Below are positions 25,364 to 63,732 of a DNA stretch of 64,000 nucleotides, in pieces; within the stretch, counting starts at the first letter, position 1, and every line of letters starts with the position of its first letter. Origin of the DNA: a virus; IMG/VR virus record IMGVR_UViG_3300044712_001062, positions 32,001 through 96,000 of that record, one strand, 5' to 3'. A program made the translations under genes and the position numbers. A model generated the notes under the pieces. It was not told the origin of the DNA, did no database searches, and worked only from the letters and a program-made list of their open reading frames with translations.

Positions 25364-26044
25364 TTAATATAAGCGCATTCCATAACACGCAAGAGAATAA
25401 TTACTACTGAATGACGATTTACCAATCACAACCAATTCGATTAAATTATAACCAGCGATTAATGAATTACTTAATGTGACTTCACGCTGTGCATTGGTAG
25501 ATGTTGAGGTATAATCATCATAACCTCCGGAATCCCTTACGCCATTAATATATAAATCATATACTGCACGAGTATTAAATTTATTATTGCTAAAGGATAG
25601 TTTAGTTTCGTTTCCTATTGCGTATATTCTAAATTGATAGCGATCATTGATGGCTGGACTATCCATTATAGTATCATATGATCCAATAGATACTACTTTA
25701 ATAGTGCTATTATTTATGATTTTATTTAATCTTGTTATTGTCCCGGTAACTGGAAGGCAATTATTAGATATATAAGTTCTAATTGCTTTTTCGCTTGGGA
25801 CTTTAAGATCGGTGTTGGTTGATAATGTTCCATCAGTATCCAAATAACTAATTGGCATTTGAGCATCATTAGTAACATTACCAAGCCCTACTTGCGATTT
25901 GGTAACATTATGGGGATTAGTGGTTACATTATCCATATGTCCGGTAGTTTCACTTACCATGTCATTCCAATCACTTGCATTTAAACGACCATTTATAGCA
26001 TCAGTTGGTGCGTTGTCAATTTTAGTAGTTTTCCAAGTCATCAT
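25364..26044 (-). CDS. Tail-fibre-like virion protein
   Basis: NPHNVTKSQVGLGNVTND fibre repeat and DTDGTLS...VPSEKAI motif. Confidence 0.75.
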   Translation of the reverse strand: MMTWKTTKIDNAPTDAINGRLNASDWNDMVSETTGHMDNVTTNPHNVTKSQVGLGNVTNDAQMPISYLDTDGTLSTNTDLKVPSEKAIRTYISNNCLPVTGTITRLNKIINNSTIKVVSIGSYDTIMDSPAINDRYQFRIYAIGNETKLSFSNNKFNTRAVYDLYINGVRDSGGYDDYTSTSTNAQREVTLSNSLIAGYNLIELVVIGKSSFSSNYSLACYGMRLY

Positions 26045-26055
26045 ACACCACCTCG

Positions 26056-26358
26056 TTAAATGCCCTCAAACTCGGCATAAATTTTAACATTAATTGCTCT
26101 ACCTTTGTATATGGAGCCATCAGTCATTTCAGCGTATGATTGGATGATGTAAGTTCCTGCTTCATCCAGATCACCATCAACTGTATTATATTCGATTTGG
26201 CCATTAACTGCACTACCATAAATACTGGCAGTCCATTCTTGTTTGGCTAATGAAGGTTTTCTAACTAATATTTTAACAGTTTGATAATCAGTTAGATCAA
26301 TATTCATATTTAACTGAAAGGTAATTCCTATTGAATTTCGATATATGTAATATGCCAT
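26056..26358 (-). CDS. BppU-like/Ig-fold virion (baseplate) protein
   Basis: VKILVRKPS...W.A....GQIEY...GDLDEAGTYIIQ pattern; located in the tail module. Confidence 0.6.
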   Translation of the reverse strand: MAYYIYRNSIGITFQLNMNIDLTDYQTVKILVRKPSLAKQEWTASIYGSAVNGQIEYNTVDGDLDEAGTYIIQSYAEMTDGSIYKGRAINVKIYAEFEGI

Positions 26359-30698: not shown

Positions 30699-33600
30699 TC
30701 ACCCCAAGGCGATTGATAATGCAATGGCAATTGCTTGTGATACTCCACCACTTGAAGCCGGTAACTGACCACTTGGAACTTTACCATCTGCACCCAAACT
30801 TGCTATTCCATTCACATTTCCTTTACTTGATATAAAGGTATCAATCTGTGCATGAGTATTTGTACCTTGATCATAGGTGTGAGAATGAGTGCTAATAGTT
30901 CCAATTAACTTGGCTTCGATTTCAGCACCAGTTATGTCAGAATTCTTTTGGGCATCTGAAGGTGCATGAGTTGCCTGGCTATGATCATATGCAGTTTTAC
31001 CTTTATCACCGACATATGCAGTGGTTGACGATTCTCCTAATGCTAAATGCGCTGATGATATATGAGATTGGATATTAACATTGGCAGGTTCATAAACTCC
31101 AGTGTGATTATGTGTTGATATTGCATATGTTGATGTATCAATGGACCATGTATTTTCTGCAGTTTTCTTTAGTAATCCATATGTTCCAGTTAATGCTGCA
31201 ATGTTTGTTAGATCGGTATCTGCTGGTTGATATACACCACTATGATTATGTGTGGATATAGCGGCATCAGTAATTCCATAACCAGCGAGGGTAGTTGCTG
31301 GATTTTGTTTACCATTCCAAGTTGACTTTTCGGTGTCAGTTACAAAACGGTTGGTTGAATCTTGAGTAATTATACTTGGTGGGTGATTTGCTGGATGAGT
31401 ATAGTTGTTGGCATCACTTGGGGCATGTAATGATGTTATGTGGGTTTGAATTGCTGCATCGGCTGGTTCATAACTGTGAGTGTGGGAATTTATTCCACCA
31501 GTTAATACACTTTCAATTTCACTTTTAGTTATGTCAGAGTTTTTCTGGGCATTGCTTGGAGCATGTGAAGATTGGCTGTGATTGTAGGCAGTGTTACCAT
31601 AATCACCACGGAATGCCGTAGATGAAGTTGTACCGAGTGCCACACCTTCATTAATACGGACGTAAACGGTTCCAGACCACCTATATGCGTAGTTAGTATC
31701 GATGGTAATGTATGCGACTCCAGAATCGCCAGTAACTGGAAGTGCTGCATAATTGGCAACTTCAATGATATCGTCTACGTATGCGGGTAATTGAGTTGTC
31801 GGGATTTTACCACTTTCATTGAGGGATGCCAAACCATTTACTGCACCTTTACTCGCAATAAACGTGTCAATCGTTGAATGTGAATTGGTGCCTGCCCCCG
31901 ATAAGTTTTGGTGAGTGATGTTGCTTTCGTTGATATCGAGGTTTATGGAGTGGTGATCGGTGTCATCGGTTAAACTTAATTTATTACTCAATACGTGAAT
32001 ATTTTTGAATTGGAGGTCTACACCAGACTTTTGGAAGTATAATCCAGTGCCTAAAGTTCCTTGGTTTGATGCTGTATTAACTTCTCCACCAGATCCACCA
32101 CCACTTGCTACGTCAAATAGTCCAAGTTTTCCTGCAGGAATAAACTCTGCTTTAGCAGGATTAGTTAAATCATTTGTACCTTGTTGAACTACAATCCAAC
32201 CACGGAATGTATCGGCTGTGTTGTAGGGGTTTATTTCAATAGCAGTTTGAATTGCAGATTTTGCTGCTTCAAGGGTTGCATATTCAACTTGTCCATATTG
32301 AATGTCATTGGAATTGGTGTATGCGTAGAGTGATACAACTTGAATTGTCCAATATCCTGCAGTTACATCAACGAGTGTTCCGTTTCCATCATCATAGTGA
32401 TCTGGGTCTATAGTTGTTGTGGCTGCTTCATTTGAAACCCATCCACCATCACCGTCTCGATAATAGTAGTAGAATTCACAAGGGCCTTCTGCATTTGATA
32501 CAATGACATTTGGTGATTTTTTAGATACACTGTAATTTGCGCAATTATCGAAAGTTCTACCTGCAGATCGTTTAATAGTTAGACCACTGTTGGCTGAATA
32601 AGTGTTACCCTCGATGTTGAATGCACCGAAATTTTCCAAGAAGTCAGTTAACTGGGCTTGTAAATCACAATTGTAAGTGGGTTCAGTTCGAGCATCAGTA
32701 ATTTCAGTTGCACCGGGACCGGGATGATCAAGCCATCCTATTACAATGAGATCACGACGATCATCATCAGTATACATATCACTGGTAACTAAAATGTCAC
32801 CATCGGCATTGATACAAACATATGAAGTATCGACTGTCGCAATGTAAGGGTCATCAAGGGCTGTTTGCGATTCCCAAGTTACCAAAGTTTTAACAGGGTG
32901 TAACGGATCGGTGTAATTGTTAATGACGATACCTGAACCTGCTGATATGTCAAATTTAGTTGGGTTAACATTGATTGAAAGTTCTCCACCAGTTAATAGA
33001 CCAGTTGATAATGCGGTGATATATTGGTTATGCTCGGCAATTGCAGCAGTTGATAATGGCTTGTTTAAATCACTGGTATTATCAACATTGTTTAATGATA
33101 GATCGGTTTTGGTGAGTCCATGTAGATTTCCAGTTGCTTGAGAGTGATCATAGGCTGTTTTACCACGATCTCCACGGTATGCTGTAGTATTAGTTTCACC
33201 GAGTTGTAAAGTGGTATGATCGTGGGTTGATATAGTGCCGATTAATTTGGCTTCGATTTCAGCCTTGGTTATGTCAGCATTGGCTTGTGCTGAAGCAGGA
33301 GCATGAGGTGTCGAAATATGAGTTTGGATGTTTGCATTGGCTGGTTCTGCCCCAATTTGTGATGCATTAACTCCATGAGGGTTGTTAGTTGCTGAAATGT
33401 GTGATTGGATGTTATTGTTGTAGGGTTCGTAAATTCCACTGTGGTTATGATTGGTATCAGATTTTGCTGATAATGTTGTATCTAAATTTGTTATGTCAGT
33501 TTGAGCATGAACATGTGGATTTGGATTACGAGTATCTGACAACCTGGAATCATTTGTATTAACTTTGTTAGATAGATCAGATGCAGAAGCCTTTAAATTT

Positions 33601-33917
33601 AATTCACTTTCAAGTTCAGCATGTGTTTTAGTTCCAATGTTAGTTAGTAAAGTATGATCTCTCACACCTTCTATCGATCCATTAATCCACGTACCATTTG
33701 AATATTTTAAACCTTGGCCGTTAACTGGAGTATCTATTTGAACGTCCTGGAGATTATCTAATTGATTATCATATGGTAAAGAATTCCAAGATACAATACC
33801 ATTACCAATCTTCCAATTCCCAGTATCGGTTTCGTAGGCTTGCTCGCCTTCAAGTAACACTGGATTGGACATTGACCAATTCAATGCTGTATCTCTCAAA
33901 ACTTGTCTTCGCACCAT
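30699..33917 (-). CDS. Long tail fibre protein (Mtd_N/hyaluronidase-type N-terminal anchor)
   Basis: RDTALNW...NPVLLEGEQAYETDTGNWKIGNG..SWNSLPY N-terminus. HxH repeats, AYRGDRGKTAYDHSQ and HAPSxAQKNSDIT repeats, NGLASL...GKIP.xQLP. Confidence 0.85.
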   Translation of the reverse strand: MVRRQVLRDTALNWSMSNPVLLEGEQAYETDTGNWKIGNGIVSWNSLPYDNQLDNLQDVQIDTPVNGQGLKYSNGTWINGSIEGVRDHTLLTNIGTKTHAELESELNLKASASDLSNKVNTNDSRLSDTRNPNPHVHAQTDITNLDTTLSAKSDTNHNHSGIYEPYNNNIQSHISATNNPHGVNASQIGAEPANANIQTHISTPHAPASAQANADITKAEIEAKLIGTISTHDHTTLQLGETNTTAYRGDRGKTAYDHSQATGNLHGLTKTDLSLNNVDNTSDLNKPLSTAAIAEHNQYITALSTGLLTGGELSINVNPTKFDISAGSGIVINNYTDPLHPVKTLVTWESQTALDDPYIATVDTSYVCINADGDILVTSDMYTDDDRRDLIVIGWLDHPGPGATEITDARTEPTYNCDLQAQLTDFLENFGAFNIEGNTYSANSGLTIKRSAGRTFDNCANYSVSKKSPNVIVSNAEGPCEFYYYYRDGDGGWVSNEAATTTIDPDHYDDGNGTLVDVTAGYWTIQVVSLYAYTNSNDIQYGQVEYATLEAAKSAIQTAIEINPYNTADTFRGWIVVQQGTNDLTNPAKAEFIPAGKLGLFDVASGGGSGGEVNTASNQGTLGTGLYFQKSGVDLQFKNIHVLSNKLSLTDDTDHHSINLDINESNITHQNLSGAGTNSHSTIDTFIASKGAVNGLASLNESGKIPTTQLPAYVDDIIEVANYAALPVTGDSGVAYITIDTNYAYRWSGTVYVRINEGVALGTTSSTAFRGDYGNTAYNHSQSSHAPSNAQKNSDITKSEIESVLTGGINSHTHSYEPADAAIQTHITSLHAPSDANNYTHPANHPPSIITQDSTNRFVTDTEKSTWNGKQNPATTLAGYGITDAAISTHNHSGVYQPADTDLTNIAALTGTYGLLKKTAENTWSIDTSTYAISTHNHTGVYEPANVNIQSHISSAHLALGESSTTAYVGDKGKTAYDHSQATHAPSDAQKNSDITGAEIEAKLIGTISTHSHTYDQGTNTHAQIDTFISSKGNVNGIASLGADGKVPSGQLPASSGGVSQAIAIALSIALG

Positions 33918-33970
33918 AATTACCAATGGTGGATATTTACAATATAAAATAGGGGTGTGGATAAAAATTT

Positions 33971-38450: not shown

Positions 38451-39380
38451 TCAATAATCGAGTTCCATGGCGATTTTGATACCTTCGGCAGTTAAAATTC
38501 TGCCTCGTGAGGTTTTTTCGATATAACCGTTTGACATTAGGATTGGTTCGTGCATTGTTTTGATTACTTGTTCATCTTCTCCGATTTGATTGGCGATGTT
38601 TGAAAGTCCGACTGGTGAGGCATTGAAGATGTAGAACATAGCGTGAAGCATTGCTCTATCAGTTTTATCAAGGCCATTTTCATCGATTCCTGTAAGTGCG
38701 AGTGCTGTAAGGACGACTTGGGAATCTACGAAGGTTATTTGATTTGATATTATGTGATCGCGGATTCTTCTGATGAACTGGAGAGCGTTACGGGGGACTG
38801 ACCTACTGGCTTTAGCGATTGTTGAAATGGCATCATGGCTATATGAAATGTTTTCAGCATCCATGTTCATTGAGATGATTTGATGGAGTTCATCGATTGT
38901 GTAGGATGAGAGTCTGATTTGAATGGGGAAACGGTTGTATAGTGGTGTTGGAATCATTGCAAGTTCAGTTGTTGCTGCGATGATGGTGATTTTTTTACCT
39001 GGAATCCTTACCATACGATCTGGATAGCGGATGCTCACCAATCCACTTTCGAGATATTCATAAAGGCTTTCAGAAGTAGTGCTATCGAGGCTGTGCAGTT
39101 CATCTAAGAATAGTATATCATTGTCCTTCATTTTGAGGATTTTAGTGTTGAGGATTTGAGGAGAGTTTTTTATTGTGGAGCACATGAGTTTTTCAACGTG
39201 GACATTCATTTCTTTGCCAATAAGCATGGCCAATTCTGATTTTCCACAGCCTGAACATCCTGCGATGAATACATGATCGAGGGGTTCATTGCGTAGTTTA
39301 GATGCATTTATAGATTCTTTTAGGAGAGCCTTGGTGTTGTCGTTGCCGATATAGTCATTGAATGATTTAATTTCTTTCAT
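38451..39380 (-). CDS. ruvB: Holliday-junction branch-migration helicase RuvB
   Basis: FNDYIG, LDHVFIAGxxGCGKS, ILFLDELH, IAATT, LYNRF, SRSVPRNA...RRIRD, GIDENGLD, PVGL, EPIL...IEKTSRGR: all canonical RuvB motifs. Confidence 0.95.
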   Translation of the reverse strand: MKEIKSFNDYIGNDNTKALLKESINASKLRNEPLDHVFIAGCSGCGKSELAMLIGKEMNVHVEKLMCSTIKNSPQILNTKILKMKDNDILFLDELHSLDSTTSESLYEYLESGLVSIRYPDRMVRIPGKKITIIAATTELAMIPTPLYNRFPIQIRLSSYTIDELHQIISMNMDAENISYSHDAISTIAKASRSVPRNALQFIRRIRDHIISNQITFVDSQVVLTALALTGIDENGLDKTDRAMLHAMFYIFNASPVGLSNIANQIGEDEQVIKTMHEPILMSNGYIEKTSRGRILTAEGIKIAMELDY

Positions 39381-41520
39381 GGTTGATTGTCCTTGGGTTT
39401 TTAAATTTTAGATTTCGTTGATTGTGTGATAGTTTGGTTGGCGAATTATCCAGCGTGCAAAGTCATTAGTGGGATTCTTGAGCCACATGATGTATGGTTT
39501 TTGTGTTTTTACGTTTTTAAATGATACTTCATATTCATTGCTTGTTGGATAGTAGTGAATGTAATTGAGATGATAATGGTTGATCATTCCTTGTATACAC
39601 ATTTGCATTTCATATGATGAAATTTTACTCCATTGATGGTCAGTGTTGATACTTTGAAATAACATGATGGATGATCCTTTGGTTTTTAAATTTTTAAAAT
39701 TTGTTAATTTTTTAGATGATCTCAAGTTTATCATTATCAACTAATTTCCACATGAGACCTTTGCCGTCCATTAACAGGATGGTTTGAGTGGTCTGGTCTT
39801 TACATAGGTGAAGTTCTGGAGTGAACTGGAATGAATTTAGTTGGTTGATTAGTGCCTGGAGGATCAATTGAGAGACGTAGAGGTCTTTACTGGTGAACTT
39901 TCCAATATCGCAGATGATTGACATTTGTGTTTTAAATGTTGTGTTTTTCATGATGTTAAATTTTTAGATCCATAGAGGATCTGAAAATTGTGTGGTGGTG
40001 GACGGCTCAACTCCAGTCTATGAGACCCATGCTCATGAGTTCTTCTTTTGATAATTTCATTTTTTGTTGGACTCGATGACATTTTAAGATTGAACATTTT
40101 GCTGGATCGCAGTGGTGGAGTGTGTTTGTGATGTATGTACAGGTTTTAATGATATCACCTTTGTTCCATAATATATTAGTTAAATGTATATTTAGTTGTT
40201 TTCAATTGTATCATGATCATTGGTTGTTAGGTGGTCAAATGGAGGGGGGAAATCTACCAAATTGTTGTATAGATTGTGAATGAGGTCGATTGATGATCGA
40301 ATTACGTTGTTTTTCATATCAGTGTAATAGCCACTGGAGTTGATGAATTCATCAAGGGATTTATAGAGGCAGGATGTTATACAATCGTGGGTTAAATGGA
40401 TGTTCATGCCATTGTCATCGAGATAGCCAAGGATCATAATGGCATCGAAATAGTTCAACAATCCTGAATTGACATCCTGGATGATTTGAGTATTGAAATC
40501 TGTGTTATCAGGATCATATAGGGTATCTTCAAGTGGTGTATAACATGGTTCGAAATAGAGTTCAGTGTAGTAATGTTCATTGAGCCATTCTCGGTTTAGT
40601 GGTGAGGTGGTTAGTGTTATCATGATGGGTTCCTTGGTTTTAGAATTTTAAATAATGTGATGATCGATTTTGTGATGATCGAATTGGTGATGATCTACTA
40701 ATTCCAACTTTCAATTACTTTATTATGATTATCATATTCTACAAGTTTATCATACCATTCGTTATTACATTGTAGAAAATCAGTCCCTTCATTGTTTATG
40801 ATTTTGATGGCTTCTTGATCATTTTCAGCCTCAAATTCATATTCCATGGTTGTAATAAATGTGTATTTTTTCATGGTGGTGTTCTCCAAGTTTTAAAATT
40901 CTGTAAATTTGTTTAGTTCTTTGTTATAGAGCAATTTTGATTCTACATAATCACAATCTTCTAAAAGTTCTGATATCTGTTGTTTAGTTCTGTTTGATAA
41001 TTTGAAATTGGTTGTTAGATGGCTTACTCCTTTTCTAATTTCATTAATTTGATCTATGTTCATGATAAGAAATCCTTTTAGAATTTTAATGGAGTTATTT
41101 TTGGTAAAGTTTTTTGATTATTTGATCAATCATTTCAATGTCATTTGGTGTGTTATGAGATGATTGGCTCATCCGCTTAAGCATTAGTGTGCTGAATAAG
41201 AATGAGGTTTCATCATCTGTGAAATGTAATCCTTGGGCCTTCTCATTGGACATTTGCGATCTCCTGGAACATGATGTGATTGTCGTGGATTTTGAAAGTT
41301 TTGGGGTAGAGTTGTACGAGGGTGAGTGGTTCAAGGTGGATTTTTGAAGCATAGGATAACTTCATTTTGTGAGTTTTGGATTTTGCGAGTTTGACTTTGA
41401 GTTTTATGGCTTTGTCGTAAGGGGTTTCACTGGCTGCGATTAGTTGTTTTTTCAATTGGCGCTTGAGGGATGGGGTTAGTTCAGTCATTATGGTTCTCCA
41501 AGTTTTAAAAATTTTAATTG

Positions 41521-42054
41521 TTAAGATTTTTTAATTGGTTTAAAGAATTTTTTGAGGTGGTCAATTACTGGTTCGGGTATGACTCTAATTAACCATTCAT
41601 TGCCAAATGGTATGTTTCCTTCGTTGTAGAGTTCTGGGTGATTAATTTTGAGCCATTTAGCATTGTCAGGTGTCCAACATGGTTCAAGGTTGGCTGATTG
41701 GAGGGCATGATACTGTTTTTGAGTGATACAACGGGATGCCAGGTGATAATTATTCCAGATTGCGAGGATTTCAATGAGGTCGCTTCGATTTTTGGGATTG
41801 TCGATTTCATTCAGATAGGTTGATTTGATGGTATCTTGGATTTGGCCAACCGATTCAGGTTGTCTGTGGAATTTTTCGTAGATTTCTCCAGTTAGGGAAA
41901 TTTCGGTGTAGTCAGGAGTTGGTGATTGATCAATCCACGAACGCCGAGTTTCCCAATGACATTGGTTAATTTCGAGGTCGATTACGATACGAGTTCCATT
42001 GGTTGTTTTGAAGGTTCGTGTAAAAGTTTGTGTGTTTAGAATGTCTGCGGGCAT
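41521..42054 (-). CDS. Hypothetical phage protein
   Basis: SLTGEI...SVGQI...WNNYHL...FGNEWL motif. True start is the ATG after TTGGAGAAC (the ORF track's TTG start is part of the RBS). Confidence 0.7.
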   Translation of the reverse strand: MPADILNTQTFTRTFKTTNGTRIVIDLEINQCHWETRRSWIDQSPTPDYTEISLTGEIYEKFHRQPESVGQIQDTIKSTYLNEIDNPKNRSDLIEILAIWNNYHLASRCITQKQYHALQSANLEPCWTPDNAKWLKINHPELYNEGNIPFGNEWLIRVIPEPVIDHLKKFFKPIKKS

Positions 42055-45000
42055 GATGTTCTCCAAGTTTTAAAAATTTTTAAACGATTAGTTTTTCTCA
42101 TTGGTCAGTGTTTTACAGTAGATGTGAAATAACTCATCTTTTGGGAATTTTGATTCGGTGAATTCGTTTAGTTTTTCCCAAGCATCATTAGAGTTAGATG
42201 CATCGATGAGGATAGTTCCTTCGATGTTAAACATGTAGGTTGTCATTTAAAATCTCCAAGTTTTAAAAATTTATGGAATCGAAATTGATAGTAATTTCAA
42301 ATTTTTCGCCAATAGGATTGTTTTCTTCATCTGTGATTGTAATAAATACTTGTGTATTAGTCACAGTCATTGATTCATTGTTAAGTTTTTGATTTGCTTC
42401 TTTAATGAATTTCGCAAGTGTTTCGCTGCTATTGGCTTTAATTGTAGTTTTTTTAATAATTTCAATTTCAAAATAATCCATTATCATACTCCTTTGTTTT
42501 AAAAATTTTAATTGTTAGTTCCCCACATCTTGAGGCCTTTGTAGGTTTCAATAAAGTGGTAATCGTTGTTCAGATACTGCTCAAAGGTTTTGAACATTTT
42601 AGTTTGAACCTGCTTTGCAGTGATTTTATAGATTTGGACTTCTTTGTTGTCGTTTATGTATTCAACGATTGTAGAAGTTCCTTGCTTGAATACTCGTGCT
42701 TCAGTGAGGTCAAGTCCAAATTCTTCGAGGGGTGTTTTGTTTTCAAATTCAAACCACATTGTTGTCATGAATTAATGTTGGTTGTTTATGGTTATAAAGG
42801 TTTGGTGTGAGGTTGCTCCAAAGTGAAAAAATAAGGAGATTTTACTTTATTCTGGGGGATCAAATGATGATTTCATCAATCTATTAGCGTAAGCGCGAAG
42901 ACTGATGGCGTTGTCGATTTTGAGTTTGAAAGATTCTGGCTGATCGAAATCGCCATGAACGTCAATTTGACCACCTGTGCTTGGGGTGCCCAGGCGAATG
43001 ACATCTGGGATTTTCTCAGGTTTTGAGATGTGTAGGTTAAACATGGTAGTTCACGGGGGTTGTTTTCAAAATTTGATTAATAGGCTATTTCCATTGCGTT
43101 TTTGAAAAGTTTAGAATGGTTGTTTCCTTCGGAATTCCAGGTGGAGTATCCACCATATGCTATGAGGGCTTCGACTTTCATTTCATTGGTGATTTCAGGC
43201 TCGTTTGTTAGACTGGAGTAATGTAAAGCGTTTTCAATTATTAGTTCATCGATTTCGCTTAAGGTTAGTTCATGGACTTCAATGAGGTATTTATTTGGGT
43301 GATTGTGGTCCATTGCATGATGGAGGTTTGTTAGGGAAATTACTTGATAGGTGTCATTGTCTGTGGTTTTGTACCATGAGCCATCCCATTCAGACCAATT
43401 GAGGTCGCCAGTGAGGAAGTTCCAAGATTTAGGTAAAGGTGGATTAGTGGTCATTTTAAGTTCCTTGGTTTATGATAAATCTTCAATGCCTAATATGTTA
43501 TTGAATCTTTTAATGACATCAACATTACAATGATATACAATAATAGGAATTACTTTCTTATTTTCCATAATAAGTGCTTGTTTGGCTTTGTTGGTGTCTT
43601 TACTGAATTGTACTTCGATGAACTTATGAAGTTTATCAGAGTAATAGAGTTTCATATAACACCAATACCGTTCAGAGTCATTGTAATGTTCGGCAATCAA
43701 TTCAATTGTTGATATGTCAATAATTTTATTTGTGTGCTTACAAGTATGTTCACAAATAGTTGTATAAAGAGGGCAAATTTCTGATTCTGTTTTCATTTTC
43801 GCTTCTATTTTTGGTTCTGGTTCTATTTCAATTGTCATTGGTTTTTCCTTGGGTTCAAATCTTTCAAAAAATGCTACTATTTCTTTCCATTGAACCCACG
43901 TCATTACATGATAAGTCCCGTCATCATAATCGAACCTTACCATAGGTTGTTCATTTGAGTAATACGTTGATGGTTGCATGTTTTATTTCTCCAAGTTTTA
44001 AAATTTTTAATTGTTTAATATCTTGTAAAGCCATTTTCGAATTTGGATTTTAAATTGGGATATGCATTTATTAATTTGTCATATGTTTTTTGTATGTCAT
44101 GCTTGGTAGGATTATGTTCACTTCTGGTCATTTGGAAATGCTTTAGACTTGAAATAATAAGTTCCAAGTCATCATTGTTTAATTCAATAGACATTTTATG
44201 ATCCTTTGTTTTTTAAATTTTAGAGTTAGTTCGATCATTTTGTTTAATAATTACTTATGATGTAATCGTGGAGGAGTGATCGGTAGGCTTCATTACATAG
44301 AGTGATAAAGGATGATTTGTCAATTTCACGATCTAACATTTTACTTTCGAGATGGCTGATGAAATTGTAATCGTCTATGATGTTGCAGAGATCGCTTGGG
44401 GTTTTAATGAAGTCGTTGTTTTCACAGTAGTAAAAGGCATTGTCGAATACTTCATCACTGTTTAGGTTTAGCCCTTCTTCATGGTAGAAAATGTTCAGAT
44501 GGGCGTGCAGTTGTTTTTGTAAGGTGTAAGTGTATGACATTAGGTACTCCTTGGTTTTTAGAATTTTTAAATGGTTGATGATCAAATTGTTCATTGATCA
44601 ATACCTTGGGTTTTTTAAATTTTAAATGGGGTTATTTTTCATTAATATCAATAGTCATTTTTTTTACTTTTTTCCAATTTGGTTTAACTTTGTAAGAATC
44701 ACATAAACATGCTGATGGTTCAAAATATTCACGATCATTAAAACATTCCATTAATGCAAAACACGGGACTTCAATAGAGTCACAATCATCACATCGAAAT
44801 AGATTATAGTTTACTTCATTCATAATTACTCATTGGGTTTTAGAATCTTAAAGGAGTTGTTTTAGAACCATATAAAATTTATTACGTTTACAATTGTTAG
44901 GAATATCAATGCATAAATTAGGATGTTTTCTATTGTAAATAATAGAAATGTTATGATTGATCCATGCTTCCACATTTCAGGAGTAAATGATTCAGTAGTT

Positions 45001-45593
45001 ACATTTCTGTTTTTTACAGCACACATATATCCAAGTATGCATATAAATCCTAATATAGCAGCAATTGATAAATTTGTCCAGAAAAGTTTGTTAATAATTT
45101 CTATCATAGATGTCCTTCGATGAATTCATAAACATCATCATTTGTTTCGATAGGCTCTTCAGAATTTAAATAATCATTGATAATTTCAACAATTTTAGAA
45201 GTTGGAAAATTATTAGATACTAAAGCATTAAGCAATGTATCATGTGTCTCGTAATTCATGATTTAATACTCTGAAAGTTTATCGGGTTCAAAATCGATTA
45301 TGATGTATCCACGTGGGCAATCACCACGTAAGCAACAAGATATATTCCTATAAAATAAATCACAATCATATTCGCATGATTCAAATTTAGCCATAATTTT
45401 AATCCTCATTATTTTTCATTTGAGTTTTACAACCATTATAGTAATATTCATTGAGGTTATCTTTGAATATTATTACTTCATGGCATTTGGAAGGTTTTTC
45501 ACAGATGTAATAGTTGTTTTCTTCTCTCATAGTGTCATTGCATACTGGGCATATCATGTGATACTCCTTGGTTTTTAGAATTTTAAGGGGGTT

Positions 45594-46167
45594 GTTTTCA
45601 AATTTGAGATGTTCAAATGGCTATGCTGAATGTTATTTTTAGGGAGTGAGCCTAAATAATAATTTGGTATTTTTAAATTTAGAAAAGTGAAGTGATCATA
45701 TAGGTGAGTTGATCATATAGGTGATGATCTTATTCGGGATTTAAGATCAGGTGGATTGGGGTCCATTGCGAGTGATGAAAGGTTTAAGGTTTTCAGTATG
45801 GCTTACTGGATGGTGTTTTTACATGGGCATCAGCCATCAGCACAAATTAAGGATTGAACCTTGGAATTTATGAAAATAAGTAAGGGGGTTACTTATTTTT
45901 GACAAAGAAAACGGGACGCATTTGTAGTTTTTAATGAGGATATCAGCCTCCAAAATGTAAGTAGGGATTGAGCCTACGTTACATCGAACACTATGAATTA
46001 GTAATAGGTTTGGTGAGGTGATTGTTTGGTGGTCAATGATAGTTTGTATATTAAGACTTCAGGAGTTATAGTTCATCAATGAGGATCGGTTCACTGATCG
46101 ACTATTAGTTTTTATTCAGGGTTTCGCCTGGACAATTAGAAGTGGAGTGAACCACTATCTAATTACC
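45594..46167 (-). ncRNA. Array of four structured units: T-loop-like long hairpin + short hairpin + UAAAAAC
   Basis: Units at 46106-46167, 45925-45985, 45815-45872 and 45594-45662. Loops GG-UUCACU-CC, GG-CUCAAUC-CC, GG-UUCAAU-CC, GG-CUCACUC-CC. Stems differ in sequence but keep pairing. No long ORF. Confidence 0.6.
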
Positions 46168-46207
46168 ATACACGTAGACATTTCATTTCTATTTTTTTTG
46201 TTTGTCG

Positions 46208-46277
46208 ACATTTGGCATCAGAAAATGAATAGGATAAACATTTTTAGTAATTAATCATTTCATCATTTGCCTAATGT
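46208..46277 (-). ncRNA. Box C/D-like (K-turn) small RNA directly 3' of tRNA-Leu
   Basis: ACAUU-A-GGCA-A-AUGAUGA ... CUGA-UGCC-A-AAUGU: perfect box C and box D in canonical K-turn register with a terminal stem. Confidence 0.65.
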
Positions 46278-46281
46278 TTAA

Positions 46282-46364
46282 TGGGTAATAGCCGATTTGC
46301 ACGGCTGAACTCCTATGAGGCGACATCTTGAGTGTCGTGGGTTTGACTGCTTCCCTAATTACCC
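46282..46364 (-). tRNA. tRNA-Leu(CAA), variant D/T loops
   Basis: GGGTAAT/ATTACCC acceptor stem; GGG/CCC D stem; CGACA-CT-CAA-GA-TGTCG anticodon arm; long variable arm CTC-ATAG-GAG; AGCCG-TGCAAAT-CGGCT T arm; discriminator A; no encoded CCA. Confidence 0.85.
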
Positions 46365-46754
46365 AAAATTTGAGCATTTGGTTGGTTGATGTTCGATACC
46401 TCACACTTTGGAAACAGGTTAGTGTTTCATTGGCCTCTCATCACATGACCAATCCGGGTGAGTATCGGATTTGAAATGATCATGCACATGTGGAGATTGG
46501 TGAACTGACTTCCATTTGTATATGGTTGTTAGTTCCCTGTTATGTATATTGTATGTCAGAGGTTATATACATTTTGGTTGGTAGTTTGAATCTGGGAAAG
46601 TTTGTTTCTTTGATTCGTTGCTACGATACTAATGTTGGTTTGATTAGTATTTATAGTTATGGGATTTATAATTTGTTAAAATTGAGAAGGGTTATCAGTT
46701 TTGAGAAGAGTAAAGGATCTGAAAATGGTGTGATCGCTAATTAGGTTCTCCAAG

Positions 46755-46925
46755 TGCACCCATAGACAGAATCAGAGTGTGAACTTCCAGCCCCTTCTGT
46801 TTAGAGCAGTTTGGATGGGTATGTGCGCAGGATGATCGTGTTAGGGAATTGTGTTTAGAGGATAGGGATGCTCACGTAAACAGTGAGGGTGTGGTAAGAC
46901 ACATCTTCATCTGTCTATGGGTGCA
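46755..46925 (-). ncRNA. ~170-nt closed ncRNA with a perfect 16-bp terminal inverted repeat
   Basis: TGCACCCATAGACAGA (46755-46770) and its exact reverse complement (46910-46925). Minus-strand TTTAAATA (46954-46947) plus 22 nt puts the TSS at the G of GCACCC. Confidence 0.7.
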
Positions 46926-46949
46926 AAATAATGTAGGTATTGACTGTAT

Positions 46950-47402
46950 TTAAATGTTTGTCTGGTTAGAATTTTTGTAGTTAAGGATCTCTGAATCGCA
47001 AAGTTGATCGCAAATTGAGGTATAGTGATTTTCTCTTGGATTCCATGTGAGGGTTATGTGGGTGTTGGTGAATAGGGCTTGGCCAAGGATGGTGATTGTA
47101 TTGTGGAGTTTTTTTAAGGTTGGATTGTTGATTTTGTAAGAGCCGTTTAGTTGGTTGATTAGTAATTGTGAATCGCTTATGAGGTGGATATCAGTTTCAT
47201 TGGTGATTAGGTGTTTGTTATGCATGAGGTAGGTTAGTGCTTCGATCATGGCTGTGTACTCAGCGATGTTGTTAGTGGTGTTAATGCCTACTATGCCGGA
47301 TGATTGGTGAGCAAGGCGATCATCTATGAGGATTACATAGGCGAATGCTGCGATTCCTGGATTGGGTTGTGCCCCTCCATCTGTGTAGATTTTAAGTGTC
47401 AT
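46950..47402 (-). CDS. rnhA: Ribonuclease HI
   Basis: IYTDGGAQPNPG, TNNIAEY, SDSQLLINQLNGSYKI, PRENxxxxxCDQL: D-E-D-D catalytic set. Confidence 0.92.
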   Translation of the reverse strand: MTLKIYTDGGAQPNPGIAAFAYVILIDDRLAHQSSGIVGINTTNNIAEYTAMIEALTYLMHNKHLITNETDIHLISDSQLLINQLNGSYKINNPTLKKLHNTITILGQALFTNTHITLTWNPRENHYTSICDQLCDSEILNYKNSNQTNI

Positions 47403-54558: not shown

Positions 54559-55254
54559 ATGGATTTAACATTAGCAATCATCCTATTCACTTTGATCGCC
54601 ATAACGATCATCTTCCTATTCCCAGACATAATCGGCCTCATAGCCATATTTGGATTATTCACCCTAATGTTTCTATTCCCCCTCATCTTCATAGGCTGCG
54701 GAACAAATCAAATCGCCTTTAACGAAGATACTAACACCACAACATTTGGCAAATCCCAATGGAAATTACCCTGGCAAAAATCCTCGGTAATGCCCAACAC
54801 CCCTGATAAAATCTACCATGATATAACCCTAACAACTTACACATCTGAAGGAACCCCCATCAACTTCTACTTCGACATGCAAAATGTCAAATTCAACAAG
54901 GTGGGCTTCGATAAATTCCAAATCCACAGCCAATCCGACTACAACAAAGTAATGAACGATCTAGTAATCCGAATTGTATCCAAACACACCTCAACATGGA
55001 CCAACGATTACGCTCATTACACCGGGACCAAACTAGACGACGAAATCGGCCAGGAAATCTACGACTACATCCAAAATTCAGATTACCATACTCTCTTCAA
55101 ATACACCGAAACCCCCTATGACAAGAGACGCCTCAACATGTTCCTGTTCTCAATAGCAGGTAGCAACGAACTCGAAAGTCCCTACACCTGTATAGATTAC
55201 AGCGGATACTGCCAAGGATTAACCACCGCAACAAACATCAAAAAATCCAATTAA
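54559..55254 (+). CDS. Membrane protein, possibly divergent SPFH/band-7-like
   Basis: Two TM helices, then GxxxWKLPW...TSEGTPI pattern; leaderless (TTTATATA 54529-54536 plus 22 nt). Confidence 0.55.
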   Translation: MDLTLAIILFTLIAITIIFLFPDIIGLIAIFGLFTLMFLFPLIFIGCGTNQIAFNEDTNTTTFGKSQWKLPWQKSSVMPNTPDKIYHDITLTTYTSEGTPINFYFDMQNVKFNKVGFDKFQIHSQSDYNKVMNDLVIRIVSKHTSTWTNDYAHYTGTKLDDEIGQEIYDYIQNSDYHTLFKYTETPYDKRRLNMFLFSIAGSNELESPYTCIDYSGYCQGLTTATNIKKSN

Positions 55255-56459: not shown

Positions 56460-56631
56460 TCATGAAAACCTTAAATTTCTCCAAACCTTCACCAAACCCA
56501 ACCATTCAAATGATCGCACAAATGGTCCATCACAACGAACTACCATTTACACACGCTCTATACATCCTCCAGGTCGATCCTGAAGAACTTCAAGCACTAC
56601 TAACAATCTACCCTAAAAAAGTTTAAAAAAA

Positions 56632-63653: not shown

Positions 63654-63732
63654 CTCCTTAACAAAACGAAAAAGAAAGTCCGGATCTCATCCCGTCTTCC
63701 TGTTCATTTTGTTGCGTGAGGCACATACAAAT
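63654..63732 (-). ncRNA. Dispersed hairpin-RNA element, copy H
   Basis: Minus strand: TTTATATA (63753-63746), 13 nt, ATTTGTATGTGCCT. Hairpin AACAAAAUGAA/UUCGUUUUGUU + AGGAAG/CUUUCU + GGAU/AUCC. Ends GTTTTGTTAAGGAG. Confidence 0.72.

Follow-up and report, generated by a model that had tools for sequence, protein, structure and literature searches.

An array of four small hairpin units (u1-u4) lies on the minus strand of a viral genome, and the reading that we favour, tentatively, is that RNase P and RNase Z use the hairpins, much like t-elements, as places to cut a minus-sense precursor without T5 terminators. The DNA analysed, called the window here, is the 64,000-nucleotide (nt) stretch formed by bases 32001-96000 of IMG/VR record IMGVR_UViG_3300044712_001062, which is 135,061 bp long with an estimated completeness of 83%. 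Coordinates are window positions unless marked as record positions, and the locus is read on the minus strand. A single 134,917-nt contig of one DNA run, possibly the source of the record, spans the stretch with zero differences. By sequence, the units belong to no described RNA family. Judged by analogy, they are a new form of t-element-like tRNA top-half hairpins, for which the nearest kind is the t-element by function and the TMER array of murine gammaherpesvirus 68 (MHV68) by layout.

The four units, between 46167 and 45594, have the coordinates and the minus-strand sequences that an initial annotation had given them (Table 1). Each begins with a bulged hairpin, hairpin 1, in which base pairs were counted by script from RNAfold structures. 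Together the four copies contain 49 pairs, all standard, with no mismatches and four G.U pairs. The stem sequences cannot be aligned between units, and the GG-YUCAMU(C)-CC loop and its closing pairs are kept. The stems had been described as compensatory between units, and this is borne out: they differ, and they all pair. Stems that diverge yet remain fully paired, around a kept loop with closing GG/CC, point to selection on the fold with a sequence-specific loop. The unit with the most tRNA-like geometry is u2 (7+5 bp). Hairpin 1 of u1 is also 7+5 bp if its three outer pairs, G-C, G.U and U.G, are taken as leader/trailer pairing. For u4, RNAfold pairs 4+6 (45661-45634), and an extra U-A pair (45662/45633) is possible, giving 5+6.

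In tRNA, the 7-bp acceptor stem stacks on the 5-bp T stem to form a 12-bp helix with a continuous 3' strand, and the 5' strand exits this helix at nucleotide 8 and returns at nucleotide 49. The stacked helices of u1-u4 measure 15 (or 12), 12, 12 and 11 bp, and their bulge, of 1-2 nt, always interrupts the 5' strand, at the point from which nucleotides 8-48 of a tRNA would branch off. A T loop is defined by seven nucleotides, a G53-C61 closing pair, a reverse-Hoogsteen pair between U54 and A58, and U55 and C56. The equivalents of U55, C56 and A57, as well as the closing pairs, are invariant in all four loops. U54 is found in two loops and A58 in two, and u3 alone combines them; u2 and u4 have 7-nt loops, u1 and u3 6-nt loops. 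The common T arm is GGUUCAAAUCC, and the corresponding segment of u3, GGUUCAAUCC, is one base short of it. None of the units encodes CCA. The likeness to a tRNA T arm or elbow noticed in the initial annotation holds for the minihelix geometry, the loop and the 5' bulge; it fails for the U54/A58 pair, complete in one of the four loops, and for loop length in two of them.

What the units share with t-elements is an acceptor-type stem joined to a T-type arm, in a stretch free of open reading frames (ORFs) behind a promoter-like site. They are not tRNAs: D and anticodon arms are absent, and the Rfam tRNA model has no match in 45000-47000 at E<=10. A search of the 64-kb window with Rfam 15 at the gathering score returned tRNA-Gln only. 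The suggested kinship with GOLLD, ROOL, Y-RNA or another Rfam family found no support, as no match was obtained at the gathering score, nor at E<=10 in 45000-47000 or 46090-46380.

Decayed tRNA genes, or tRNA-fragment attP sites with no RNA function of their own, are a very improbable origin for such units. Large viruses do carry tRNA clusters, the neighbouring tRNA-Leu is itself atypical, and a tRNA-like gene of halovirus HF2 has been interpreted as attP (PMC8707807). The HF2 sequence resembles ours as a low-scoring tRNA-like sequence in an archaeal virus genome; it differs in being one fragment beside an integrase, matching host tRNA genes (PMC8707807), whereas here there are four self-paired hairpins. 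Four independent, precise losses of nucleotides 8-48, each leaving a perfect continuous helix, would however be unlikely without selection, and decay does not sit well with 49 intact pairs in stems that cannot be aligned. Nor does an attP fragment require a complementary 5' strand. The tyrosine integrase family PF00589 had no matches in the 83%-complete record, and the T arm plus 3' strand of u2 (21 nt; u2 was the only unit searched) had no exact matches in the genomes of 185,579 species.

The array stands out from chance occurrences of its parts. In the 135,061-bp record, with both strands counted, the loop motif GGYTCAMTCC has six sites, and four of them fall within 510 nt on one strand at this locus. 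We built a descriptor from the loop motif, an inner stem of at least 4 bp, a 5' bulge of 0-3 nt and an outer stem of at least 5 bp. It accepted four of the six motif sites in this genome, all of them here, versus none of 122 in 289 other loci (2.43 Mb), many of which had been chosen for containing the motif. With a looser loop the figures were 4/11 here versus 1/338 elsewhere, the lone outside pass being an unrelated GC-rich sequence. When only NUC was demanded in the loop, the genome contained 21 such hairpins, and the four units had the longest clean stems.

No paralogue of the units was found elsewhere in the genome. Relatives of the neighbouring RNase H were found at two viral-contig loci and at 91 metagenome loci; the two and 80 of the 91 were examined, with 30-47% identity, and these showed neither synteny nor a motif-bearing hairpin. 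A RuvB-like protein and a 242-aa protein of the virus had no relatives. Pattern scans of viral contigs gave more than 112 matches for the loop combined with the loop of the second hairpin, all single and chance-like, 95 single matches for the gene-start cassette described below, and none for the ends of the box C/D-like RNA that precedes the array.

A second, smaller element is coupled to hairpin 1 in three of the units. In u1-u3 a 4-bp hairpin closed by GG/CC (hairpin 2) begins 0-3 nt past hairpin 1, and the heptamer UAAAAAC follows 1-2 nt later; the copies of hairpin 2 plus tail are 70-80% alike over 20 nt. Hairpin 2 of u3 has an alternative pairing, AUGGCU/AGCCAU. Unit u4 differs, with a 6-bp second hairpin 14 nt after hairpin 1 and a UGAAAAC that merges into the gene-start cassette of the next ORF. 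Hairpins of the form NNGG-N6/7-CCNN with 4 bp number 144 genome-wide, and TRAAAAC comes 0-3 nt after three of them, which are exactly u1-u3. In a permissive test any 4-bp hairpin preceded TRAAAAC at 31 of 73 sites, so that hairpin 2 is weak evidence by itself and convincing only within the composite. The 'kiss' between loop 1 and loop 2 that had been envisaged comes down to three complementary bases, and we do not retain it. A CRISPR repeat or mini-array was considered for hairpin 2 plus tail and rejected, the match being at chance level (CRISPR-DR52, 14.7 bits where the gathering score is 50, E 4.5).

The heptamer is not unique to the units. UAAAAAC has 25 copies on the minus strand of the record, four of them in 46114-45571, and it forms the second A-rich block of a recurrent cassette, (C-rich)-TTAAAATT-Y-TAAAA(A)C-C-AAGGAG-N5-8-ATG, which precedes at least 10 ORFs of a minus-strand operon (39380-45604). 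Its presence in these cassettes makes the tail of the units a sense-strand signal common to gene starts. The first A/T block of the cassette lies about 25 nt before the ATG. From its sequence, the cassette may be a promoter for leaderless mRNAs that also bears a GGAG resembling a Shine-Dalgarno sequence. The C/A-rich spacer between u1 and u2 holds AUCACCUC at 46022-46015 (minus), which resembles the 3' end of 16S rRNA, the anti-Shine-Dalgarno sequence; the operon cassettes carry GGAG. A 13-mer, UGAAAACCUUAAA, occurs at 56463-56475 on the plus strand, 3 nt past the 3' end of the genuine tRNA-Gln, and again at 45795-45783 on the minus strand, between u3 and u4. With this shared 13-mer, a (U/G)AAAAC motif repeatedly trails tRNA or tRNA-like 3' ends.

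A tail shared with gene starts hints at expression control. The hairpins might be sites at which an RNA-binding protein, viral or host, attaches or exerts regulation, or stability elements of a long leader, with no tie to the tRNA-processing machinery, the T arm being no more than an ancestor or a look-alike. We consider this unlikely. A conserved loop on variable stems is what such sites would look like, and the T-loop signature is incomplete, present in one of four loops. On the other hand, the 12-bp stacked length, the 5' bulge and the tRNA-like neighbour would all become unexplained coincidences, and Pfam searches of the neighbouring ORFs gave no candidate protein.

The orientation of the units was assessed in several ways. 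All four G.U pairs of hairpin 1 require the minus strand, since they become A.C mismatches on the plus strand, and one more minus-only G.U, read by eye, is present in a hairpin at about 46103-46065. Fold z-scores against shuffled sequences (minus/plus) were -3.76/-3.04 for u1, -2.74/-1.90 for u2, -1.24/+0.09 for u3 and -1.45/+0.25 for u4; for the 711-nt region as a whole they were -5.55 and -4.01. The wobble pairs and the better minus-strand z-scores agree with the initial annotation, which had read the units as minus-strand RNA-type hairpins. Runs of five or more T across 45380-47000 number zero on the minus strand versus 12 on the plus strand; base skew makes this asymmetry a weak argument for the minus strand. 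With moderate confidence, and on sequence evidence, we take the minus strand to be the RNA sense of the units.

Promoters were sought with a position weight matrix (PWM) built from the 16 dispersed promoters of this virus, at a threshold of 8 bits. Genome-wide 166 sites exceed the threshold, and one of them is in 45300-47100, a TATA-like site at 46959-46944 on the minus strand, rank 74, which sits at the stop codon of the RNase H gene. No site above 8 bits precedes any unit on either strand.

These results bear on the possibility that the locus consists of four small RNA genes on the plus strand, each with its own GTTTTTAWT promoter (the complement of UAAAAAC), a start at the hairpin base and a T5-T8 terminator, the likeness to a T arm being coincidental. 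The sequences GTTTTTATT, GTTTTTAAT and GTTTTTACA are found 29-31 nt before the loop motif in u1-u3, and a start about 25 nt downstream of them would coincide with the hairpin base. There is a T8 at 46192, a T5 at 45896 and a T5 at 45670, after u1, u3 and u4, and TATA-promoted hairpin RNA genes, 16 in number, are spread over both strands of the virus. Nevertheless, we judge such genes to be quite unlikely. The 16-promoter PWM finds no plus-strand site of 8 bits or more in 45300-47100, against the genome-wide count given above, and u4 has no motif at the matching spacing. The loss of four wobble pairs and the worse plus-strand z-scores of all units, which are near zero for u3 and u4, argue in the same direction. 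Hairpin 2, with its covarying outer pairs, would be left unexplained.

The reading as RNase P and RNase Z cutting signals draws on the context of the array as well as on its geometry. About 1.4 kb without a credible ORF separates the RNase H gene from a 52-aa ORF. On the minus strand this stretch contains, in order, a tRNA-Leu(CAA)-like gene, a box C/D-like RNA and units u1-u4. The flanking genes, the tRNA-like gene and the C/D-like RNA are all on the minus strand, and the units start 114 nt downstream of the tRNA-like cloverleaf in the same orientation. The only strong TATA match is at the upstream end, with none comparable before the units, and the minus strand has no T5. An array in one orientation behind tRNA-like and C/D-like genes, in 1.4 kb of ORF-free DNA without T5, is best read as a polycistron of top halves that RNase P and RNase Z could cut. 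A polycistron of tRNA mimics open to these enzymes had been among the initial suggestions; orientation, context and geometry make it the best reading, and the mimicry of the elbow itself is partial.

From the sequence we infer a single transcript, its cleavage by the two enzymes, and what hairpin 2 and UAAAAAC do, as follows. One long, mostly non-coding minus-strand precursor would start at the TATA-like site near 46955 and span the tRNA-Leu-like cloverleaf, the C/D-like RNA and the four units, running into the downstream operon. Each minihelix would be cut at its 5' base by host RNase P, and past the first unpaired base on its 3' side by RNase Z. These cuts would split the precursor and free the C/D-like RNA, three inter-unit pieces and the downstream mRNA. 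Hairpin 2 would then be the 5'-terminal hairpin of each downstream piece, possibly shielding it against 5'-3' decay.

Acceptor/T-arm minihelices serve as in vitro substrates of RNase P and of the CCA-adding enzyme. In Haloferax volcanii, RNase P and tRNase Z cut t-elements that flank an RNA (PMC4326828), and in plant mitochondria t-elements and plain acceptor-like stem-loops mark mRNA ends (PMC1920247). RNase Z enzymes of methanogens cut pre-tRNAs without D, anticodon or T arms and require the acceptor stem and a mature 5' end; C residues right after the discriminator reportedly hamper RNase Z (PMC7479834). The published biochemistry of t-elements and RNase Z makes the proposed mechanism feasible.

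Several observations weigh against processing of this kind. The U54/A58 signature is complete in one loop of four and two loops have six nucleotides; the helix of u1 reaches 15 bp if its outer pairs form, and that of u4 is 11 bp. The Rfam tRNA model is blind at E<=10 both to the units and to the neighbouring 'tRNA-Leu'. After the discriminator position u1 reads G-UCC, with C residues unfavourable for RNase Z. Hairpin 2 and UAAAAAC are given a loose role, and UAAAAAC also belongs to a promoter- or 5'-untranslated-region-like cassette of many genes. On the plus strand, u1-u3 have GTTTTTAWT some 25 nt ahead of the hairpin base, and T5-T8 runs come after the hairpins. Finally, our searches yielded no relatives, either of the virus or of the locus, and the comparison is of four paralogues, so every functional step is drawn from these four.

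The minihelices might instead be the product itself, as stable anticodon-less top-half decoys that titrate the CCA-adding enzyme, T-loop modification enzymes or tRNA-directed defence nucleases. We find this doubtful. Retention of the loop and closing GG/CC while the stems drift is expected when a protein reads the loop, and four copies in a row would suit a decoy. No partner protein is apparent, however: Pfam searches of the neighbouring ORFs brought up nothing beyond RNase H and a weak zinc ribbon, and U54 and A58, normally needed by tRNA-binding enzymes, vary. Anticodon nucleases would be improbable targets for units that lack an anticodon arm, and we set aside the proposal that the units act as decoys for them; hairpin 2 of u2 and u3 alone has a 7-nt loop with CUGAU. 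A combination of cutting and decoy is conceivable, though again improbable on the present sequence evidence. In such a module the excised top halves would persist as stable mimics occupying tRNA-binding host factors, and each cut would also release a hairpin-capped small RNA; these small RNAs would include the C/D guide RNA and C/A-rich RNAs antisense to the 16 dispersed hairpin RNAs.

An element acting at the DNA level, for instance an origin of replication or a packaging site whose hairpins extrude from single-stranded DNA, is a highly improbable account of the locus, even though a 1.4-kb ORF-free A/T-rich stretch with tandem 17-nt repeats (45687-45720) and several perfect inverted repeats might suggest one. 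Cumulative GC skew climbs steadily through the locus and turns elsewhere, near 25 kb and 53 kb of the window. Wobble pairs confined to one strand, together with conserved loops and variable arms, suit a single-strand reading of the sense strand of the flanking genes.

Among known systems, t-elements, in H. volcanii upstream of 5S rRNA and in plant mitochondria, share with the units a non-decoding tRNA-like fold within a longer transcript (PMC4326828, PMC1920247). In those systems RNase P and RNase Z cuts give the neighbouring RNAs their ends; here the cleavage is predicted. T-elements are mostly cloverleaves, if imperfect ones, and occur singly, whereas this virus has a row of four hairpins reduced to acceptor stem and T arm, of which three are coupled to a second small hairpin and UAAAAAC. 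Plain stem-loops that mimic an acceptor have also been proposed to work in plant mitochondria (PMC1920247). The TMERs of MHV68 likewise form an array in a virus: in each of the eight, hairpins lie downstream of a tRNA-like element, and tRNase Z parts the two (PMC4838037). They differ in belonging to a eukaryotic virus, in being RNA polymerase III units, and in having full tRNA-like cloverleaves and precursor-microRNA hairpins for Dicer; there is no sequence relation to our units. Laboratory minihelices, such as those used with archaeal RNase Z (PMC7479834), have the same 12-bp coaxial helix capped by a T loop and the same lack of D and anticodon arms. They were trimmed from real tRNAs, whereas the loops of the units are partly non-canonical and CCA is not encoded. 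No description of such arrays, nor of a use of RNase P on tRNA-like elements in archaeal viruses, turned up in the available parts of the literature on archaeal viruses with tRNA-like elements; HFTV1 has an ordinary viral tRNA (bioRxiv 10.64898/2026.09.13.751334).

Table 1. Features of the locus and of the rest of the genome (window positions unless marked; nt, nucleotides; sRNA, small RNA)
Feature	Position	Strand	Details
u1 hairpin 1	46131-46167	-	RNAfold: 10 bp + U bulge + 5 bp, loop UUCACU
u1 hairpin 2 + tail	46108-46130	-	CAGG-CGAAAC-CCUG (46130-46117), AA-UAAAAAC (46114-46108)
u2 hairpin 1	45954-45985	-	RNAfold: 7 bp (one G.U) + C bulge + 5 bp, 7-nt loop CUCAAUC
u2 hairpin 2 + tail	45927-45950	-	GAGG-CUGAUAU-CCUC (45950-45936), AU-UAAAAAC (45933-45927)
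u3 hairpin 1	45841-45872	-	RNAfold: 8 bp + CC bulge + 4 bp, loop UUCAAU
u3 hairpin 2 + tail	45815-45837	-	AUGG-CUGAUGC-CCAU (45837-45823), G-UAAAAAC (45821-45815)
u4 hairpin 1	45633-45662	-	5 bp + A bulge + 6 bp, 7-nt loop CUCACUC
u4 second hairpin + tail	45594-45618	-	AUUUGA-ACAUC-UCAAAU (45618-45602), U-UGAAAAC
Perfect 11-bp hairpin between u2 and u3	45873-45899	-	Loop CCCCC
Candidate TATA-like promoter of minus-sense precursor	46944-46959	-	AAACATTTAAATACAG; PWM 9.6 bits
tRNA-Leu(CAA)-like cloverleaf	46281-46365	-	ARAGORN
Box C/D sRNA-like gene	46209-46277	-	AUGAUGA ... CUAA ... UGUUUA ... CUGA, GGCA/UGCC closing stem
RNase H gene	47402-46950	-	Pfam RNase_H, E 6.9e-10
52-aa ORF	45557-45399	-	Weak zinc ribbon (Pfam)
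Gene-start cassette of 52-aa ORF	45562-45604	-	CCCCC-UUAAAAUUC-UAAAAAC-CAAGGAG-N6-AUG
Dispersed small RNA genes in window, examples	4309(+), 5523(-), 35299(+), 35833(-), 50547(+), 50923(-), 58077(-), 63731(-)		
Histone-fold protein, 74 aa	56089-56313	+	PF00808, 34.9 bits; ~75 nt upstream of tRNA-Gln
Anticodon-less tRNA-like element	record ~25,951-25,888	-	7-bp acceptor, 6-bp tetraloop hairpin for anticodon arm, T arm GAUGG-UUCGAUU-CCAUC

Run on the whole record, ARAGORN reports tRNA-Leu and tRNA-Gln and nothing else. The tRNA-Leu-like gene is atypical in that its D stem is 3 bp long, its D loop lacks GG and its T loop reads UGCAAAU; the Rfam tRNA model did not match it at E<=10, even in a 291-nt search. 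The C/D-like gene begins 4 nt after it, with boxes C, D', C' and D in the order listed in Table 1. More than 20 Rfam C/D families match the C/D-like RNA, all below threshold, with SNORD47 at the top (24.2 bits, E 0.018 in the 291-nt search). Its 13-nt D guide has a one-mismatch site at 63710 (minus), within a dispersed hairpin RNA gene, and a second site at 54593 (minus) with one G.U. Targeting of the units or of tRNA-Leu by the C/D guide was considered and rejected, as no such target is present; the inverted repeats concerned share positions with the D' box and depend on the palindrome UAAUUA.

The extra perfect hairpin that had been noted between u2 and u3 is indeed present. Two tandem 17-nt repeats at 45687-45720, in minus sense CACCUAUAUGAUCAACU and CACCUAUAUGAUCACUU, are followed by a AAAUUUAAAAAUA block just upstream of u4. 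Directly behind the TATA-like site, about 170 nt are enclosed by a perfect inverted repeat of 16 nt (46755-46770 / 46910-46925, minus). Within them CUCUAAACA, the antisense of the UGUUUAGAG with which the dispersed hairpin RNAs end, appears twice (about 46860 and about 46806).

These dispersed elements, 16 in all, have a TTTATATA-type box about 22 nt before a conserved TTTGTATGTRC, with a spacer of about 14 nt, then a long hairpin with a purine arm and a pyrimidine arm, and then TTTTGTTTAGAG. A pattern scan for the family in IMG/VR gave 14 matches, none of them with the promoter of the family. Among the control genomes, the histone-fold gene has matches only in the three archaeal ones with histones, and its look-alikes are archaeal or viral, of no clear phylum. 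The 16 TTTATATA-promoted RNA genes and the histone-fold gene point to an archaeal host type, and the sequence as a whole fits an archaeal host. An exact search with the 3' part of the tRNA-Gln gave no matches in genome contigs.

A second ORF-free island, richer in GC, lies at record positions 25,555-26,090 (minus), about 5.9-6.4 kb before the window start, and has its own TTTATATA box. No Rfam family matched it at E<=5. The tRNA-like element that it contains has a canonical T arm and a fold z-score of -0.28, which is not significant; with it, tRNA-like parts recur in the non-coding stretches of this genome. We count this element, like the archaeal host type, in favour of the cutting-signal reading. 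A 1075-aa protein (30699-33926, minus) has an N-terminal Mtd_N (major tropism determinant) domain. Reverse transcriptase PF00078 has no match in the 83%-complete record, so that no diversity-generating retroelement is evident despite the Mtd_N protein. We also rejected the array region as the template of such a retroelement: the record has no reverse transcriptase, and the region, apart from the cassette, is not repeated elsewhere.

If RNase P and RNase Z do cut the hairpins, archaeal viruses would use host tRNA maturation to obtain several small RNAs and an mRNA from one precursor, a strategy already known from plant mitochondria, from the 5S rRNA of Haloferax and from a mouse herpesvirus. 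Should the combination of cutting and decoy hold, the locus would be a viral small-RNA factory built on the tRNA-maturation pathway of the host. Hairpins cut by RNase P and RNase Z would also offer compact natural processing tags of 30-37 nt for archaeal genetics, and the array would give a handle on how this virus makes unusually many non-coding RNAs.

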